In this document: one piece after another, positions 17,950 through 32,335 of the stretch | Numbering within the stretch: position 1 is the first letter of the stretch | Layout: each line of letters begins with the position of its first letter | Sequence record: OL631257.1 | DNA length: 64,000 nt | Strand: one strand, 5' to 3' | From: Escherichia phage ECCR664 | Made by a program: the position numbers and the translations under genes | Notes under the pieces: generated by a model | Database searches by the model: none | What the model was told of the DNA's origin: nothing | The model's input: the letters and a program-made list of their open reading frames with translations, nothing else

Positions 17950-17990
17950 GATAGGACTACTATACCATAATCCTACTGTGATGTAAACAA
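17950..17990 (-). promoter_or_regulatory. T4-type early promoter
   Basis: Minus strand GTTTAC-18 nt-TATAGT then RBS GAGGAATACAAAATG. Confidence 0.55.
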
Positions 17991-23949: not shown

Positions 23950-25764
23950 TTAGGACATCCATTCTTTACGAAGTTCTGAATCATCACCCAACAACATTTC
24001 AAAGAGTTCTTTCCAATTTTCAGGAAGTTTAACTACGTCGTACACAGGGTTTTGAATCATTTCACGATATTCTGACTTTTCAAGGAGCCCAATCCCTTGA
24101 TGTATCGAATACTATGCTTAGGCAGTGTATCTTTAGCTTCTTCATACTCAGCTACAGTATAAAACCATTTTTGTGTTTTGCCAATTTGTGCAATAATTAC
24201 AGGCGTTTTAACAAAACGAATACGTCCTTGTTCAAACAATTCAGGCCAATTACTAAAGAAAGCAAGCAAAGCCGGATAGATACTTCCAAGACCGTCATGA
24301 TCGGCATCGGTCATAATTGCAATATTACGATAGTTCGTATTCTCTGCCTTTTCACCAAGAATAAGACCCGTGATAGCACAGATATCAAAGAGCTCTTTGT
24401 TCTTCATCATATCAGCATATGACATACCCCAGCTATTCATCACCTTACCACGTAATGGGAATCCACCATGTAGTTCACGGTCACGAACATCAATGAGATA
24501 ACCAATTGCCGAATCACCTTCTGTTAAGAACAATGTCGTATCTGCATCTTTACCACATTGGTTAGCTTTAATATGCTTATGAACCTTAGCTTTAGTTGCC
24601 TTTTTAGCTGCTTTAGTTTCTGCAGCCTTTTCTGCCGCCAATTTACGAGCTAATGCTGCTTCAACAATAGGCATAATCAAGGCTTCGTTTTTAAGAAGTG
24701 CCTGAGCAATTTTCTTAGCATCTAATTGGATATGATTACGAATATCACCATACGTTGACGTTAAACGTTCTTTAGTCTGAGAATCAAAACGCATATTGCT
24801 CATGTCTCTAATAAACATCAACATTGTGAGACATTCTTTAACACGAGCTTTAGTGACTTCAATACCCTTATATTTCTTTTTAATACCTGGCAAAAGATGT
24901 TCGCAGATATCATCCATTACGCATTCAACATGATGACCACCGTTTTTAGTATGGATGTTATTCACATAAGTTAAATGACGGAAGCCATCTGGTGATGTTG
25001 TGAATGCTATAGAGACTTTATCATTTTCTTGAATGATGTTATCTTCACCAAATTGTTTAGCAAATCGTTTAAAATTACCATCAACCTTTTACCGTTAAAT
25101 GTGAACTTGATATCAGGATAAACGACTGCCAATGTTTGAAGTCGGTCTAAAGTAATATCTAAATAAATTTGAGATAAATTATGCTCTTCAAATGAAGTGA
25201 AATCAGGAGTGAAGATTACTTTAGTGCCTTTACCTTTAGATTTCTTAGAAGACCATGATTTGTTTTCCATTCCGTTTGAACAGTTAACAGTGATTTCATT
25301 TTCACCATCTGACGTAATGCCTGTAAACAACGTAGAGAAGATATTAGTTAAACTACTCCCGACGCCGTTCATACCACCAGTCTTGCGTTCAGAGTCGTCA
25401 CCAAAGTTACCACCAGCCTTTGGAATAGTCCAGGCTGCTACAGGCCCAGGAATTTGTTCGCCTGTTTGGTCGGTAACTAAACCTTGAGGAATACCACGTC
25501 CGTTATCTTCCACAGAAACTTGATTATTTTTAATTTGCACATCAATTTTATTTGCAAACTTAAATGATGTACGAATAGCTTCATCAACCGAGTTGTCAAT
25601 AATCTCATCGATTAATTTAACCAGACCAGGAACATATTCAACTTGTTGATATTTACCAAACAAAAACGCTCATGTGCTTCTTTGGCCGAAGAACCAATAT
25701 ACATACCACTACGTTTCTTAATATGTTCTACATCCGACAATACCTTAATTTCATTTTTAATCAT
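23950..25764 (-). CDS. 39: gp39 DNA topoisomerase II large subunit (GyrB-like), unsplit form including the segment encoded by gene 60 in T4 (frameshifted)
   Basis: MIKNEIKVLSDVEHIKKRSGMYIGSS... ATPase domain (25007-25663), TOPRIM region ...IAIMTDADHDGLGSIYPALLAFFSNWPELFEQGRIRFVKTPVIIAQ (24057-24965), C-terminal ...YREMIQNPVYDVVKLPENWKELFEMLLGDDSELRKEWMS after frame repair; ~605 codons. Confidence 0.85.
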
Positions 25765-25827
25765 GTTGTCTCCTCGTTATGAAGGTATTCTATCATCCGA
25801 AATCTAAAGCAAAAGGGCCGGAGCCCT

Positions 25828-26272
25828 TATTTAAATTTAATTTTCTGAAGTGTATCAATTGCAGCTAAACGCCCTTGTTCACTTTTAACCGTAATGACCA
25901 CATCGCCTGATACGATCACCGAACCATCAACAAATTCTATAGAGCCTTTTTGAAATCGACAGCTGTATCTGGTTCCGGAACTTCTTCAAAGAATTTAAAT
26001 TCTGCACCATAAATCAGAATATCACCTTGCATACTATGAATAGTTCGGCCATAATCGCCTACGGCTTCTACAGCAATCACTGAAACACCATAACCAATCA
26101 TCTCTTCCACAATAAAATCTTTAGACAATAAAGTAGTATGCAGATTAGTATTAAGACGTTTACCAGTCGTATTAAGAATTCTCAAGAAATTATCTTCCTG
26201 TCCTTTGATAATACGATATTTCTTACCAACTTCAAAACCTTTAAAACCTTTAAAAGACGTATTAAAAGCCAT
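25828..26272 (-). CDS. Hypothetical early protein (~148 aa, one frameshift)
   Basis: ORF 25937-26272 continues in another frame to a stop near 25828; hairpin aagggc-cgga-gccctt immediately downstream. Confidence 0.35.
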
Positions 26273-26453
26273 AATTAACCCTTCTTAAGTAAGTCGTAAA
26301 ACCACCGTTCACATGTTTAGGAGCAGAAACCCGACGAGTAGACAGACGATGACATTCAGGGCAAACATCGTTTTCTCGTTCAGAAATCCTTTTAATTTTT
26401 TCATATTCATGACCACAATCTTCAGATTGACATTTATAGTCGTATAACGGCAT
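26262..26453 (-). CDS. FmdB-like zinc-ribbon protein (63 aa)
   Basis: [42 protein letters not shown]: two CxxC pairs with the conserved N-terminal YxYxC pattern. Confidence 0.55.
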   Translation of the reverse strand: MPLYDYKCQSEDCGHEYEKIKRISERENDVCPECHRLSTRRVSAPKHVNGGFTTYLRRVNYGF

Positions 26454-26866
26454 TATTGTTCCTTAAAGTGAGCTTTCAACATTTGATACAAAGACCATGC
26501 CTGGTCGTTATTTTTGATAGTAATCGTCATCGCAGGAAATTCAGACAATTCGCCAAGTTCATCAGAATCTTGCTCTTCGGACGCTTGATACGGATTTCCA
26601 ACTTCGTCAAAGAACTCTGCTTCATTCGTGGAGAGCCAGATAAAGTTTTCATCAAGAATATCACCGCCTGTTGCGTATCCAACCATGCCAGTAGATGTCA
26701 CAATTTTAGTAGGACGTCCAAGATGGTCAACATCTAATACTTTAAATGGTTCCATGCCAAGACGTCGTGCATAAATCCCATTATCAGTGTGGTCTTTAAT
26801 AAACTCTTCTTGGGCACGTTTATCTTTAAATTGGTACCATGAGTTAACGCGGAATTTATTAGCCAT
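26453..26866 (-). CDS. Hypothetical early protein (~137 aa)
   Basis: ORF 26453-26884, start taken at [12 protein letters not shown]; acidic central region. Confidence 0.4.
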
Positions 26867-27091
26867 TAGTAAGTTTCCTTCCAATAAGTTGTACCGTTTT
26901 CAGTGATTTCACGGAAGATACCATAGATAGGCATTTCATCGCCGAGTTTTTCGTAAACGTAAACCACTTCGGTGTAGCATAAAAATTCGGTCCAGTTTTT
27001 CTGTACAACAACTAAATCAGGATTAAACAGAACATCTTCAAATTCATCGATATTTGAATCAGTAGTTACGTTTTTAATGATTTGACGTTTC
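26866..27091 (-). CDS. Hypothetical early protein (~75 aa)
   Basis: Start at [12 protein letters not shown] preceded by RBS GAGGAGAA and promoter-like element at 27103-27140. Confidence 0.4.
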
Positions 27092-27150
27092 ATAATATTC
27101 TCCTCTTGTTTTGATAGGTCTATAGTATCATAGACCATAGTTGTTGTACA

Positions 27151-27675
27151 TCATTTTAGCAAAATAAAATCAACTTGTTCTGCCAATGAACGTCTAAACA
27201 TTAATTGACAACTTCCGAGGATGAAATCAGGTGCTTCATAAACAGCGATGTAGTATCCTTTAGCTTTCAAGAGTTCAACATCCACCTGGTCATCAAACCA
27301 TGCATAAACCGCGTCAACACTTTCAAATCCAAAATAGAACCCTTGAGCCCAATCTTCGTTCAATTCAAATGTGTGCTCAATTCTATAGTATCTTAAGATA
27401 TTTTGTTCAAGGAGTTTATCTTCATTTACTGTAGGACGATTAGGGACATTATAGTTGTCGCCGTGATGGTAGAAGTTACCTGAGAGTATTCCATGCTTAT
27501 CAAGGAACTCCCATGTTTCTTCAGAGTTGTCGGTGCCCGACCAACCGTACGGCGAACGAGGTTCTTTATTCCAGGAGGTTTCCCAAATTCTGACGGCTTT
27601 ACCGTCTTCGATAGCAACTCCTGGTAAAGATTCACGTTGAGTGCAAAAACTACGTTCTACGCGGTAAACTAACAT
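27151..27675 (-). CDS. Hypothetical early protein (174 aa)
   Basis: Intact ORF preceded by early promoter 27688-27733 (GTTTAC ... TACTAT). Confidence 0.4.
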   Translation of the reverse strand: MLVYRVERSFCTQRESLPGVAIEDGKAVRIWETSWNKEPRSPYGWSGTDNSEETWEFLDKHGILSGNFYHHGDNYNVPNRPTVNEDKLLEQNILRYYRIEHTFELNEDWAQGFYFGFESVDAVYAWFDDQVDVELLKAKGYYIAVYEAPDFILGSCQLMFRRSLAEQVDFILLK

Positions 27676-27676
27676 A

Positions 27677-28153
27677 TTATTCTCCTCTAGTCGATAGATT
27701 TATAGTATCAAAACTAGAGGAGAAGTAAACAACTTTATGCAAAAGATGCTGGACAATATTTTTGATTTGGAACTCAGGAACTACCATGAACTGTCCAGCG
27801 AAAACGATGTTATAAAGCTTAACACCATCTTCTACCCATTGGTCGCTAATAAATCCGGCGATTTGCTTAGTTTTCCATGGCGTTCCATCAGTTGCAGAAG
27901 CAATAGTAAATTCATGGTCTTTTACAACTAAAACAGACCTGCACAGTTTCCATTTGAACGCTTTTTCTTCTGGTTCAATGAATTGGCTTTTAACGTAACC
28001 AATGTTGCCATCGGCGTCACGAACTTTAACTTCGTTACGTCCAAAAACCGGATCACTTACATAAAGAACTTCAACCAACTTCCCAGCAACTTTAGAGCGA
28101 GAAGCATCTGATACGTGTACATAATCACCAATAGAGAGATTTGCAATATTCAT
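27677..28153 (-). CDS. Paralog family member A (158 aa), unknown function
   Basis: Shares C-terminal motif GFISDQWVEDGVKLYNIVFAGQFMVV with the next two ORFs. Confidence 0.5.
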   Translation of the reverse strand: MNIANLSIGDYVHVSDASRSKVAGKLVEVLYVSDPVFGRNEVKVRDADGNIGYVKSQFIEPEEKAFKWKLCRSVLVVKDHEFTIASATDGTPWKTKQIAGFISDQWVEDGVKLYNIVFAGQFMVVPEFQIKNIVQHLLHKVVYFSSSFDTINLSTRGE

Positions 28154-28162
28154 AATAATTCC

Positions 28163-28660
28163 TTAAGCTTTAAGAGGAGATACATAGCGAGTGATTTCAG
28201 ATTCTTTAACAACTCGGAAGTCACCTAAGAATACGATATTGTATAACTTTTCACCATCTTCAACCCATTGGTCACTAATGAAGCCGCACATAGTATCAGT
28301 TTTGCTTGGATAACCGTATTCGTCGATGTAATCAAATTCTTTATCGGTTATAAATTCAACGCCTTTGCAAAGGGTCCATTTGAACTGTGTAGTAGGCTCA
28401 ACGATATCGTTTGAAGCAAAGTGTGCAGGTGCAACTTCTTCGCTTGAAGCAAATTGGACTCGTATATGTTTTTCCAGGAATTTAGGACTTACGTAAGCAT
28501 ACTGGGCATCTTGTCCGCCAAAACTCGGAATGATTCGAACTTTAACTTCTTTAACACGTCCCATGCCGTTAGTACGAAGCCCTGCTACTTCAACCAGACG
28601 ACCTGCAGCTTTAGAACGAGAAGCAGGAGATACACGAAGGATTTCACCAATAGTAATCAT
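28163..28660 (-). CDS. Paralog family member B (~165 aa), unknown function
   Basis: Motif CGFISDQWVEDGEKLYNIVFLGDFRVV; start set at MITIGEILRV downstream of promoter 28688-28722. Confidence 0.5.
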   Translation of the reverse strand: MITIGEILRVSPASRSKAAGRLVEVAGLRTNGMGRVKEVKVRIIPSFGGQDAQYAYVSPKFLEKHIRVQFASSEEVAPAHFASNDIVEPTTQFKWTLCKGVEFITDKEFDYIDEYGYPSKTDTMCGFISDQWVEDGEKLYNIVFLGDFRVVKESEITRYVSPLKA

Positions 28661-28687
28661 AATTTCTCTCTCTTTGTTTAAATTGAA

Positions 28688-28722
28688 TTCACTATACTCC
28701 ATCCATCCTTGGATGTACAACA
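28688..28722 (-). promoter_or_regulatory. Early promoter with palindromic spacer (CATCCAAGGATGGATGG)
   Basis: Minus strand TTGTAC-spacer-TATAGT; spacer contains a ccaagg-centred palindrome. Confidence 0.5.
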
Positions 28723-29217
28723 TTAATTAAGGATATTAACCACAGCACTACGTGGAACTACACTAAAATCACCTGCATGAACAACGTTCAGAAGTTCAAC
28801 GCCGTCTTCAATCCATTGGTCAGTTACCCATCCACTCACTGGTCCTGCGAACGGACGTCGAATTGAAACAGCTTTACACAACAAATCAGTAGGCTCAATA
28901 GGCTTAATCAGAGTACCGTACATACAAGCGATATCCATATCAAAGTGGAGACCATCTTTAACAGGTGCTTCTTCAATCAACAGTTCAAAGTCTGTGCTTG
29001 GAAGGGCGGTAGTAGAAATTGTACCGTATGAATTTTTAATTTCTAAGAATAACCAAGGGCCTTCAGCTTGTTTGATGAAGTTAACAATAGTGAAACTATT
29101 ACCTTGAGTGGCGCCTAAAATTTCACAAAACTTTTCATAAGCTCGCACTGAAGCACCATACCAGTTGATTTGTTTTTCATCTTTCAGGATGTAAGTAGCC
29201 GTAGTATTGATATTCAT
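28723..29217 (-). CDS. Paralog family member C (164 aa), unknown function
   Basis: Motif SGWVTDQWIEDGVELLNVVHAGDFSVV aligned with members A and B. Confidence 0.5.
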   Translation of the reverse strand: MNINTTATYILKDEKQINWYGASVRAYEKFCEILGATQGNSFTIVNFIKQAEGPWLFLEIKNSYGTISTTALPSTDFELLIEEAPVKDGLHFDMDIACMYGTLIKPIEPTDLLCKAVSIRRPFAGPVSGWVTDQWIEDGVELLNVVHAGDFSVVPRSAVVNILN

Positions 29218-29245
29218 AATGTTTTTCCTGTTTAGTTAAGATAAA

Positions 29246-29278
29246 AGATTATACTACAACCATCCTTGGTTGTAAACT
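29246..29278 (-). promoter_or_regulatory. Early promoter with palindromic spacer (ACAACCAAGGATGGTTGT)
   Basis: Minus strand GTTTAC-ACAACCAAGGATGGTTGT-AG-TATAAT. Confidence 0.55.
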
Positions 29279-29282
29279 GGTT

Positions 29283-29959
29283 TTATCGCTGTTTTACACT
29301 TAACGGGTCAGGATTCTCAGGGACATCTTCAAGGCCAAGCGCATAACGCTGAGCATATTTTAACATCAAAATATCTTTAGCACAATCGTGAATACTATCA
29401 TGGGCAACGAATCCTTTTAGTGTACCCATAGGTAATGGACACATACTTAATCCTCGTGTCAACGAGTAAGCTTCGATTGCCGTACGAATATCGCGTTGAG
29501 CCCAGAATTTAACCGGTTCTAATTTATCAGTATCAATCTCTGGTTCAAGAACACCTTCATCACGATAGAGGTCACGAATCAAATCGACCAATATTGGGAA
29601 GTCAAAGCTCATACCACGGCACCACATCTGTGATTTCCATTGGTCAACTTTATTAGCTCGGCAATAATCTAAAAGATTTTAATGCCTTCAAGCGTAGTGA
29701 CATCGTCTTCAGACGGAGCCAGGTTTTTACGCGCTTCAGCCGATTGTTCTTTCCACCATTTCATAGTGGATTTAGCGAAAACTCGCTTCCCTTTCTGAGA
29801 AGCTAAATTAAATTTAATTCGCTTACCTCGTTGAACAAGTTCTTCAAATGATTCAACAACTTCAGGGTCGGAATTATATGCAATAACCGCAAGGTCAATA
29901 ACAGCCGCTTTTGATGTATTGCCGAATGTTTCAAAATCTATAATAACATCAGTGCTCAT
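29283..29959 (-). CDS. dexA: DexA exonuclease A (one frameshift near 29640)
   Basis: N-terminal ...IIDFETFGNTSKAAVIDLAVIAYNSDPEVVESFEELV and C-terminal WCRGMSFDFPILVDLIRD...GFVAHDSIHDCAKDILMLKYA, T4 DexA-like. Confidence 0.8.
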
Positions 29960-29968
29960 AATTTTCTC

Positions 29969-31281
29969 TCAAATAAAATGGACGTCAAACCGACCACGAG
30001 TTGTGCCAACATATAGTAATTGTTTGGCTAATTCTGAATCGGCATAATGGATACACGGTGTATAAACAAAGGCCGTGTCAACAGACATACCCTGAGCCTT
30101 ATGGAAGGTTGATACCGGTAGTGCCTTCACCTTAGTGAACATACGTTTAGCATCCCAGAATTCACTCCATGGAGCTTTACCACCTTTATTCCAGAATTTG
30201 TATGTTTCTGCAGTCTTAGCCAAAAACAAATTGAATTTATAAAGCTCTTCTTCAGAAGAAATAACCTTTATATCTTCGCGGACGTATTCTTCATCATCGC
30301 CATATGTTTCTACTGTAAGATTCCAGTATCGTATCATATATTCGCCTGAAACACCACGTGCTTTAACAAATGTAGACGTTTCTACGGCATCTCGAATACG
30401 AACGAATTGCCCGTTATTGAAAAGCATTTCAGTCATATTTTTGCCATCTAGCTTGTATGTCTTAGTAAACGGCTCTTGTAGAACAATGACTTCATCTTTA
30501 ATAAACGGCTTTTCTGTTTCGAGAAGTTTTCGGCGAATAATTGAATTCAACTTGTCCACAGACTTATTTGTGAATGCCATCATTCGATTTTCGAAAAGGT
30601 CTTCAGGAGTTTTAACGACATTAAAATAGTTCATCATATACGATTTAAGGTCTGTATATCCATGAACACCATGCCCGTCAACTACTTTATCATAAATCCA
30701 TTTGCCATTACGAATATCGGTCGCAACATCAATAATTGGTGCATTGCTACGTTTAACTTCTGTAAGGTTGCATTGCACGAAGTCTTTGTGAGTGAAGAAA
30801 GGACTTAGATACGCAGTTGATTCGCCTGGGTCGACCGGACGAATCTGGCATCTGTCGCCGATTCCAATTACTGTGCACCATTTAGGGATACTAGCTAACA
30901 TTATTTTAAACAGAGAACGGTCGCACATTGATGCTTCATCAAATAACAGTACACGACACAAGGCTAAGTCGGGAACCTTTTTCTGTTCAAACAATACGTT
31001 TTCTTCGTATGTAGTTGGGTTGATTTTAAGAATGCTATGAATAGTCGATGCTTCTTGACCTGCAAGTTTGCTTAGAACCTTTTAGCAGCATGTGTAGGGG
31101 CTGCTAAAATAATACCTGATTCTCCAGAAGAAATAAGGGCTTCAACGATGAATCTAGTAAGGGTTGTTTTACCTGTACCGGCAGGCCCATTAATAGTTAC
31201 GTGATGTTTCTTTTCTTTAATAGCTTTCATAACAACGTTGAAGGCGTTTTTCTGGCCTTCGGTCAAATCATCAAATGTCAT
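29969..31281 (-). CDS. dda: Dda DNA helicase (SF1; one frameshift near 31030)
   Basis: Walker A TINGPAGTGKTTLT in fragment 31072-31281; 341-aa C-terminal fragment with ...LLFDEASMCD... and ...VSTFHKAQGMSVDTAFVY...LYVGTTRGR. Confidence 0.85.
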
Positions 31282-31590
31282 CGTAAAGTCCCTGCAATTG
31301 GAATACTAACAATACGGCCTGTGTCCAGGATTCGTTGATATAATCTTTGCGTCTCCGCATCTAGTTTAACGTGTTTCATTTCAAGCTTATTAAACCAGAA
31401 CTTACGCGGAGTTTCGACCATTCTTAGAACTCCCATTTTTAAATCTGTTTTATACTGTGTTTTCAAAGTATCGAAAACTTTATCTGCAATATCCTTTCTA
31501 AAAATACTGCAGGACGATGTTCATCAAGTGGAACTGGAACAGTAAATCCTTCCATATCTCGATAAACTATTGCATATACATAAACCATAA
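31278..31590 (-). CDS. Hypothetical protein (dda.1 position; one frameshift)
   Basis: MVYVYAIVYRDMEGFTVPVPLDEHRPAVF... continues after a frame break into ORF 31278-31466. Confidence 0.4.
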
Positions 31591-32335
31591 TTAACCTTTA
31601 ATCAGTTGGAATAATGATGCGCTAAGTGGTAAGCCACGTTTCAATTTTAATTTACCAATGAAACCAATCTTTTCAAAACGTTGCAGACCTTGAATAACTT
31701 TATCATATGTATCGAAAAGCGATTCAGCGTCAGTTAATTTAGTTTTAGTTTTCCAGTCAGAGCCTTTAAGAAGAACGTTGAGTTTAGTAAGTTCATGTCC
31801 TTCCGCTTGATGTGAACCATTAATGCGTGCTTTCAAAGCAACAATTCTAAGTTTAGATTCGTTGGATAAAGGTTGATTTTTCATCATGTTCGCCATATGC
31901 TTAACACGATTTTCACGTTTTGCTCGGATTTTTAAAATAGTACCATAAACCTTTTGATTTGGGCCCATTTCTTCTCATCAAGATTAAGTTTCTCTACTTT
32001 ACGGGCAGAAGGATTAGCGATACGCCTTGCAATGGCATCACGTTTCTCAATAAGTTCTTCTAATGTTAAATCAGAACGAGCAGTGTTATATTTTTCTTAA
32101 CTGGGATAACATTACCTTTAATGTAGCCGATATCGTTATTAAAACGTTCTAAGGATAATTTCTCACCTTCAACAGCGTTATTGAAAGATTCACCTGAGTA
32201 AGCGCAGACCTTTTGATCAAGAATGTTTTTAAGGTAATTAAAGTCTAAGTTAAAATCCTTAGAGCGTCTCTTCGCAGAAGCTCTGGTGTGGTCAAGACGA
32301 CGATTGATTTTGTTAATTTTATTATTTGATAACAT
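31591..32335 (-). CDS. Hypothetical protein (~248 aa with two frame breaks); positional equivalent of T4 srd
   Basis: ORFs 32066-32335 and 31591-31968 are linked by a frame-shifted segment; assignment is positional only. Confidence 0.3.

Follow-up and report, generated by a model that had tools for sequence, protein, structure and literature searches.

Positions 27677-29217 of a 64,000-nucleotide stretch of Escherichia phage ECCR664 (OL631257.1; this whole stretch is called the window) hold three adjacent open reading frames (ORF), head to tail and all on the minus strand, and raise the question of what a tandem set of genes with one common C-terminal motif does for the phage. The set was identified as motB.1 (ORF3), motB (ORF2) and a second copy of motB (ORF1). 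The cluster is probably expressed early, with the ORF2 protein binding the nucleoid and perturbing H-NS/StpA, and with the C-terminal barrel acting in docking. What was determined on the window itself is family membership, domain architecture, gene order, promoter sequence, modelled fold and charge distribution. The ORF and the domain that they share were placed as follows:

29217..28723, minus strand: ORF3, 164 residues, MotB.1 orthologue
28660..28163, minus strand: ORF2, 165 residues from the ATG at 28660, MotB orthologue
28153..27677, minus strand: ORF1, 158 residues as written, second MotB copy, shorter and lacking the long linker
28726..28893, minus strand: shared C-terminal domain of ORF3, residues 109-164, PTDLLCKAVSIRRPF..GWVTDQWIEDGVELLNVVHAGDFSVVPRSAVVNILN, placed by invariant alignment columns
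28166..28384, minus strand: shared C-terminal domain of ORF2, residues 93-165, placed by alignments
27761..27958, minus strand: shared C-terminal domain of ORF1, residues 66-131, placed by alignments

The motif G(F/W)(I/V)(S/T)DQW(V/I)EDG.(K/E)L.N(I/V)V..G.F.VV was present in ORF1, ORF2 and ORF3. In pairwise BLASTP, ORF1 and ORF2 matched over their full length (E = 1e-31; 42% identity), and ORF3 matched ORF1 (E = 2e-12) and ORF2 (E = 4e-10) in the last 36-38 residues only. By these E-values, far above chance level, the paralogy within the cluster is real, and the three adjacent tandem paralogues with a shared C-terminal motif that the initial annotation described were recovered at matching coordinates. 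Its statement that the N-terminal halves diverge held for ORF3, but not for ORF1 and ORF2, which were homologous along their whole length and had in common the N-terminal domain IG..(V/I)..VS.ASRSK.AG.LVEV, not present in ORF3. The motif was located upstream of the frameshift found in ORF1 (see below) and was not an artefact of frame errors.

An alternative in-frame ATG upstream of ORF2, at 28723, would give 186 residues. The start at 28660 was preferred, because homologues start with MI(T/N)IGE and because the -10 hexamer (28696..28691) lies downstream of the ATG at 28723. The gap between the ORF2 stop codon and ORF1 was 9 nucleotides, and the ribosome-binding site of ORF1, AAGGA, overlapped that stop codon; on this layout ORF1 is translationally coupled to ORF2.

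The Pfam motB family (PF17613; gathering score of 25 bits) matched ORF2 with 128 bits (residues 1-163), ORF1 with 80 bits, and ORF3 with 36.8 bits (residues 88-159 only). Family phrog_1671, labelled as a MotB-like transcriptional regulator, matched ORF2 (E = 1.9e-62) and ORF1 (E = 1.1e-50), and phrog_2333 matched ORF3 over its full length (residues 1-164; E = 1.5e-81). Both ORF1 and ORF2 had a KOW-like N-terminal domain with VS..SRSK.AG.LVEV followed by the MotB C-terminal domain. This N-terminal domain was absent from ORF3, which therefore belongs to the MotB.1 branch, and ORF3 had the MotB.1 C-terminal string PTDLL..V.I...F...GWV(T/S)DQW.E..(V/I)ELLNVVH, formed by the invariant columns of the MotB.1-type alignment. 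Judged by the alignments and these profile scores, the identification of ORF3 as MotB.1 orthologue, ORF2 as MotB orthologue and ORF1 as an additional MotB copy is secure.

The window belongs to the genome of a T-even phage of the genus Mosigvirus (RB69-like). It was 95-97% identical to Mosigvirus genomes (e.g. NBG1, HX01, ST0 and PNJ-6), in which the counterpart genes were annotated as MotB-like. On the same strand the cluster was flanked upstream by dda and dexA, and downstream by a 174-residue homologue of T4 motB.2, cef and goF. The order dexA-motB.1-motB-MotB-like-motB.2-cef was common to the window and RB69, in both of which goF came next, and was also present in HX01, PNJ-6 and three IMG/VR contigs; the order in T4 was dexA-motB.2-motB.1-motB-cef. 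All three ORF thus lay between dexA and cef of a Tevenvirinae genome. MotB.2 was rejected as a fourth member of the family: a GF.S...W-like motif was seen in a MAFFT alignment, but the hhalign probability was 0.35% and there was no Pfam motB match.

MotB homologues have been reported to be restricted to Tevenvirinae (Patterson-West et al. 2021; PMC7827196). T4 MotB and MotB.1 have the C-terminal domain in common and unlike N-terminal domains, RB69 has two motB and one motB.1, and further categories join other N-terminal domains to a MotB.1-like C-terminal domain (PMC7827196). T4 MotB is an early protein whose DNA binding is tight and independent of sequence, and it is toxic to E. coli; H-NS and StpA co-purify with it, H-NS footprints are changed by it and burst size is doubled (PMC6070864, PMC7827196). 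For MotB.1, the N-terminal domain was predicted to be LSm-like, and deletion of the T4 gene had no phenotype (Kim et al. 2025; PMC12152347). The cluster, first taken for a lineage-specific expansion, is therefore a re-discovery of a named motB.1/motB/second-motB cluster spread across Tevenvirinae (771 records) in its RB69 layout, and it has little weight as a discovery because the family, the two-domain logic and the RB69-type triplet were already published.

In ORF2 a disordered linker of variable sequence (residues 66-89) joined a basic KOW-like N-terminal domain to the shared C-terminal domain, and ORF3 consisted of a distinct beta-rich N-terminal domain, a linker and a MotB.1-type C-terminal domain. 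AlphaFold2 models from family alignments were confident and had two domains both with ORF2 (predicted local distance difference test, pLDDT, of 78.4; residues 66-89 below 50) and with ORF3 (pLDDT 82.8). The C-terminal domain of the ORF2 model had strands at residues 100-112, 118-134, 137-144 and 147-152, a short helix, and a strand at 156-160 (pLDDT 86-95). That of the ORF3 model had five strands, with a short helix preceding the last strand. The shared C-terminal domain is predicted from these models to be a five-stranded SH3/Tudor/KOW-like barrel, bearing the shared motif, with a helix between the fourth and fifth strands. In the OB-fold topology, the helix is between strands three and four. 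An OB-fold of the cold-shock DNA-binding type was not supported for the C-terminal domain by the models. Resemblance to the SH3-like barrels of Tudor, chromo, PWWP and KOW domains was one of fold only (10-18% identity), with common descent, methyl-lysine binding and nucleic-acid binding unsupported. No solved structure related in sequence to these proteins was found.

The computed isoelectric point (pI) and net charge were 10.4 and +6 for the N-terminal domain of ORF2, 4.5 and -5 for its C-terminal domain, and 5.8 and -2 for ORF2 overall. ORF3 was acidic throughout (overall pI 4.65; net -8), and the N-terminal domain of ORF1 had a pI of 5.7 (net -1).

ORF3 and ORF2 were each preceded by a predicted promoter with an inverted repeat, and ORF1 had no promoter of its own:

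29276..29248, minus strand: predicted early-type sigma-70 promoter of ORF3, TTTACA-17-TATAAT, 11/12 consensus positions
28719..28691, minus strand: predicted early-type promoter of ORF2-ORF1, TGTACA-17-TATAGT, 9/12 consensus positions
29255..29274, minus strand: inverted repeat of the ORF3 promoter, TACAACCA-AGGA-TGGTTGTA, core CAACCA-AGGA-TGGTTG, overlapping the -35 hexamer
28700..28715, minus strand: inverted repeat of the ORF2 promoter, CATCCA-AGGA-TGGATG, in the spacer

The ORF2 promoter began 3 nucleotides downstream of the ORF3 stop codon. A generic promoter scan was not enriched over shuffles (15 sites vs. 16.5 expected), and support for the promoters rests for that reason on their conservation and on the equivalent T4 sites. 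Four Mosigvirus relatives retained the ORF3 promoter, HX01 and another relative (L004) had TATAAT as the -10 hexamer of the ORF2 promoter, and both promoters were at positions equivalent to T4 early sites. The cores of the two promoters were identical at 26 of 30 positions, and both spacers contained CCAAGGATGG.

The two inverted repeats differed by one stem pair, which was compensated on both arms (A-T to T-A). Both repeats were kept in all Mosigvirus relatives examined, with the innermost pair of the ORF2-promoter repeat broken in PNJ-6; in the ORF3-promoter repeat, relatives retained CAACCA/TGGTTG. The conservation indicates that the two predicted promoters, with their inverted-repeat spacers, are genuine sequence features shared by the Mosigvirus relatives examined, and the early-type promoter sequence with a palindromic spacer that had been noted in front of ORF2 and of ORF3 was confirmed for each.

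In the proposed mechanism, early transcription of the cluster would start at two sigma-70-type promoters, with ORF3 under the first and the coupled ORF2 and ORF1 under the second, and each protein would pair the conserved C-terminal barrel, over a flexible linker, with an N-terminal beta-domain that varies. By extension from T4 MotB, ORF2 would bind DNA non-specifically, with its strongly basic KOW-like N-terminal domain as the main contact; the likely DNA-binding surface would shift to this domain because the C-terminal domain is modelled as SH3/Tudor/KOW-like and is acidic in the Mosigvirus copies. Once on the nucleoid, ORF2 would reshape H-NS/StpA filaments or compete with them, and phage yield would improve, as with T4 MotB. 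The C-terminal barrel would be a common docking or oligomerisation module and not a DNA-binding surface, since it was acidic in ORF2 and ORF3 yet was the most conserved segment. ORF1, with an N-terminal domain that is not basic and with no long linker, and ORF3, acidic and with a different N-terminal domain, would bring other activities to the same partner. DNA binding, interplay with H-NS, early timing and C-terminal docking are inferred, and the three proteins are, by analogy with T4 MotB, likely early nucleoid-associated host-takeover proteins that modulate H-NS.

Several points weigh against this reading. The biochemistry drawn on is that of T4 MotB. ORF2 was 44-46% identical to the T4-type MotB cluster (P0209; 51-54% to T4 MotB domain by domain), and its overall pI of 5.8 compares with 9.23 for T4 MotB (net +6; computed); its affinity for DNA may therefore differ. 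The C-terminal domain was acidic in ORF2 whereas that of T4 MotB was mildly basic (computed pI 8.6; net +2), so that the argument from an acidic domain to no DNA binding fails for the family as a whole. In the T4 MotB work, the C-terminal domain was assigned to the OB-fold by HHpred, and the authors considered either domain capable of binding DNA. Knock-down of T4 motB barely changed the phage transcriptome (PMC7827196), and deletion of T4 motB.1 had no burst phenotype (PMC12152347).

It is possible, if unlikely, that the acidic SH3/Tudor-like C-terminal barrel is a docking module for one conserved partner (e.g. a phage or host polymerase subunit, or H-NS/StpA by way of its basic linker or DNA-binding region), onto which N-terminal effectors are shuffled. 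Candidates for the shuffled domains are the KOW-like domain, the LSm-like domain, and at least two more of about 120 and about 190 residues. If this were true, the genes, one to three in each genome, would amount to a modular toolkit for countering xenogeneic silencing.

An action on RNA appears improbable. The proteins would then be RNA- or transcription-elongation-associated factors and not nucleoid proteins: the KOW-like or LSm-like N-terminal domains and the Tudor/KOW-like C-terminal domain would act, like the C-terminal domains of NusG/Spt5/RfaH or like Hfq, on RNA polymerase, Rho, ribosomes or mRNA, and so adjust early gene expression or the stability of mRNA. Historically, MotB came from a complex in which RNA polymerase was present (PMC6070864), but knock-down of T4 motB did not significantly change T4 RNA levels (PMC7827196). 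Likewise, the N-terminal domain of MotB.1 has been grouped as LSm-like with GoF and Frd.2, but wild-type GoF and MotB.1 left reporter RNA stability unchanged, with a MotB.1 construct that was probably the truncated 119-residue form (PMC12152347). The neighbouring genes goF and cef, annotated for mRNA metabolism and tRNA processing, agree with an action on RNA; the tight binding of purified MotB to double-stranded DNA (PMC7827196, PMC6070864) does not.

The distribution of the family bears on the suggestion that the cluster is a diversifying module. A tblastn search with the C-terminal domain of ORF2 matched 771 phage records at 1462 places, almost all in enterobacterial phages, with one to three copies per genome among the matches listed. 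An ORF1-type copy at 80% identity or more was present in 207 records. An exhaustive hidden Markov model (HMM) search of 1.84 billion cluster representatives returned 41 clusters only. The weakest clusters, about ten (P0244-P0254), matched the MotB N-terminal motif only in repeated short stretches and were rejected as signs of the family outside T-even phages; the three that were inspected were translated arrays of clustered regularly interspaced short palindromic repeats (CRISPR). Such arrays among the weak HMM matches repeated VSTHSRPKAAG 6-9 times and were a database artefact, not homology. A weak tblastn match to the C-terminal motif was also obtained in Escherichia phage DCP80 (PQ671644, 141 kb) at 68651-68758 (44% over 36 residues; E = 9e-5). 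This could be a C-terminal domain outside the T-even group, the DCP80 genome being much shorter than the T4-like records of about 165-172 kb.

The layout between dexA and cef was surveyed in 23 IMG/VR loci plus T4 and Mosigvirus records, and the interval held one to three genes with the C-terminal domain in every surveyed locus:

Mosigvirus: MotB.1, MotB, second MotB, then motB.2
T4 type: motB.2, MotB.1, MotB
Others: motB.2, a 180- or 250-residue protein (other N-terminal domain plus MotB.1-type C-terminal domain), then MotB
One gene plus motB.2: motB.2 followed by a gene of 151-164 residues
Single gene only: about 126 residues, KOW-like N-terminal domain plus MotB.1-type C-terminal domain

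The MotB.1-type C-terminal domain was 72-88% identical across genera where dda was about 57% identical, and is on that account the conserved and not the diversifying part of the proteins. In comparison with five close relatives, identity was 97-98% in dda, dexA, motB.2 and cef, 71-99% in the N-terminal domain of ORF2, 63-100% in the linker of ORF2 (indels of 12-33 nucleotides) and 84-100% in ORF1. Among genomes about 97-98% identical in those four genes, the N-terminal domain and linker of ORF2 dropped to 63-89% with indels, and ORF1 to 84-92%. Two chimeras (P0155 and P0217) had the N-terminal domain of MotB and a C-terminal domain of the ORF1 type. The variation seen in these alignments suggests exchange by recombination, between copies as well as between genera. 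The suggested diversification thus had some support in the mosaic N-terminal domains and linkers and in the chimeras, but not in the shared C-terminal domain, which was the most conserved.

An anti-defence module under diversifying selection, whose variable N-terminal domains would track host immunity while the C-terminal domain kept a common function, is very doubtful: the variation looks like recombinational exchange of alleles between genera and not like an arms race by point mutation, the DNA binding and H-NS activity of MotB point to general host takeover, and the literature searched shows no link to any defence system. It would agree with the position of the cluster in a dispensable and mosaic early region, with one to three copies across Tevenvirinae, in which one C-terminal domain is combined with at least four N-terminal architectures, with N-terminal domains and linker being the most variable parts of otherwise 97-98% identical genomes, and with the existence of chimeric alleles; the T4 motB.1 deletion without phenotype on laboratory strains would also fit a host-specific role (PMC12152347). 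Between the host-takeover and anti-defence functions first proposed, T4 MotB provides a link to the former, and nothing was found that ties these genes to the latter.

Compared with RB69 (NC_004928, Mosigvirus; motB.1, motB and RB69p010), gene order was the same as in the window and the C-terminal domain of ORF2 had 95.9% protein identity. In the RB69 record, motB.1 was split by two extra T bases into a product of 132 residues and an ORF of 29 residues, whereas ORF3 of the window was intact with 164 residues. RB69p010 had 139 residues, whereas ORF1 of the window had a frameshifted tail.

Compared with T4, ORF2 was like MotB in its KOW-like N-terminal domain, linker and C-terminal domain, in its position upstream of cef, and in having its own early-type promoter. 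A second MotB copy was absent from T4 and present in the window as ORF1. ORF3 aligned over its full length with MotB.1-type proteins, and it aligned with T4 MotB.1 (Category 2 of Patterson-West 2021), which was also matched by Foldseek (P39415). Identity of ORF3 with T4-type MotB.1 was about 81-85% in the C-terminal domain but only about 32-36% in the N-terminal domain, and ORF3 had an extra linker segment of about 20 residues, DMDIACMYGTLIKP. In T4, motB.1 followed motB.2, whereas in the window ORF3 directly followed dexA with its own predicted promoter.

The T4 reference (AF158101/NC_000866, 1700-1850, minus strand) alone had an extra G, ATTGGAAGATGG, which cuts MotB.1 to 119 residues inside the C-terminal domain. 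Thirteen other T4 records matched with a one-base gap, and translation of one of them (MT984581, 106-537) gave a MotB.1 of 143 residues ending in ..DQWIEDGVELLNVVHAGEYSVVPRSAVVAILN. Kim et al. (2025) obtained motB.1 by gene synthesis, cited T4 sequences from NC_000866.4 and reported 13.8 kDa (PMC12152347); for these reasons their heterologous assays probably used truncated MotB.1. The frameshift in the reference and the probable experimental use of a 13.8 kDa version built from it may be of use to those working on T4 early proteins, as may the SH3/Tudor/KOW-like fold predicted for the shared domain and the promoter hairpins described below.

The 158, about 165 and 164 residues first given for ORF1, ORF2 and ORF3 stood as open frames, but ORF1 is probably shorter. 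The difference was traced to a single base:

27761..27767 (about 27764), minus strand: window-specific one-base deletion in an A-run, ATCAAAAAT in the window and ATTAAAAAAT in relatives, from alignments of close relatives

The deletion swapped the last eight residues for a 27-residue tail, ..NIVQHLLHKVVYFSSSFDTINLSTRGE, that ran through the next promoter. The counterpart of ORF1 had 139 residues and ended in ..PEFQIKKYSPAAFA in 6 of 6 relatives (HX01, PNJ-6, RB69 and three metagenomic). The alignments indicate that the true end of ORF1 is probably the TAA at 27737..27735 (139 residues), and that the length of 158 residues is probably an artefact of the deletion.

Aligned together with three relatives, the window had seven one-base deletions in about 6 kb, all of them window-specific and in A/T runs of five or six (about 31084 in dda, 29675 in dexA, 29244, 27764 in ORF1, 26302, 25952 and 25815). 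The deletion in dexA (677 nucleotides vs. 678) split the gene into ORF of 96 and 114 residues, that in dda cut off the N-terminus, and the 39.2/FmdB-like gene and another ORF were also frameshifted. In this alignment the pattern looks like systematic under-calling of homopolymers, that is, sequencing error rather than biology.

Exact copies of CCAAGGATGG were limited to two in the 64 kb of the window, one per spacer, and the sequence was absent from T4-type motB promoters. It was rejected as a general motif: with one mismatch there were 4 matches vs. 1.9 expected, a number equalled in 9 of 100 shuffles. Folded as RNA, the ORF3-promoter repeat had -9.5 kcal/mol (z = -2.2, modest), and the ORF2-promoter repeat was weak (-7.6 kcal/mol; z = -0.7). 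The palindromes were also rejected as intrinsic terminators: the scan flagged the one at ORF3, but its stem had 3 G-C pairs and its T tract was poor; the one at ORF2 lacked a T tract. No Rfam match reached the gathering score within 25000-32000.

In T4-type phages and other genera, the motB promoter had a 7-bp inverted repeat around the -10 hexamer, GGGACC-agagTATAAT-GGTCCC, 40-60 nucleotides upstream of motB. Among 12 distinct sequences from T4-type and other Tevenvirinae, 84 of 84 cells paired and 5 of the 7 pairs changed on both sides; G-U intermediates were present, and shuffled and slid controls were nowhere near. The occurrence of G-U pairs argues for a structure in the sense-strand RNA, which would form only in read-through transcripts from upstream. 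In Mosigvirus, the palindromes of the spacers may be the local counterpart of this hairpin. Conserved hairpins with co-varying pairs enclose the promoters of this cluster, and were not previously annotated.

Other strong early-type promoters of the window, at 17987, 18499 and 39143 (minus strand), had TTTACA-17-TATAGT with an inverted repeat across the -10 hexamer, TAGGACTAT..ATAGTCCTA. Palindromes embedded in promoters may be a general trait of the early promoters of this phage.

Downstream of the cluster, motB.2 had a promoter and hairpin of its own:

27675..27151, minus strand: motB.2 homologue, 174 residues
27673-27740, minus strand: predicted early-type promoter of motB.2, GTTTAC-17-TACTAT, in a 13-bp hairpin

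The 3' arm of the hairpin contained the GAGGAG ribosome-binding site of motB.2. The hairpin folded with -20.2 kcal/mol (z = -4.8), equalled by 0 of 200 shuffles, and the stem changed on both sides across genera (CTCTAGT/ACTAGAG, CTCTGGT/ACCAGAG and CTCATG/CATGAG). With T4 lysozyme and soc, the ribosome-binding site is masked in read-through transcripts and exposed in those that start within the loop; by analogy, the motB.2 hairpin may resemble this arrangement. The unit of motB.2, promoter and hairpin was located after the MotB genes in Mosigvirus and directly after dexA in T4 (NC_000866, locus L003, 2162-2662), and motB.2 seems to have moved as a cassette of promoter plus gene.

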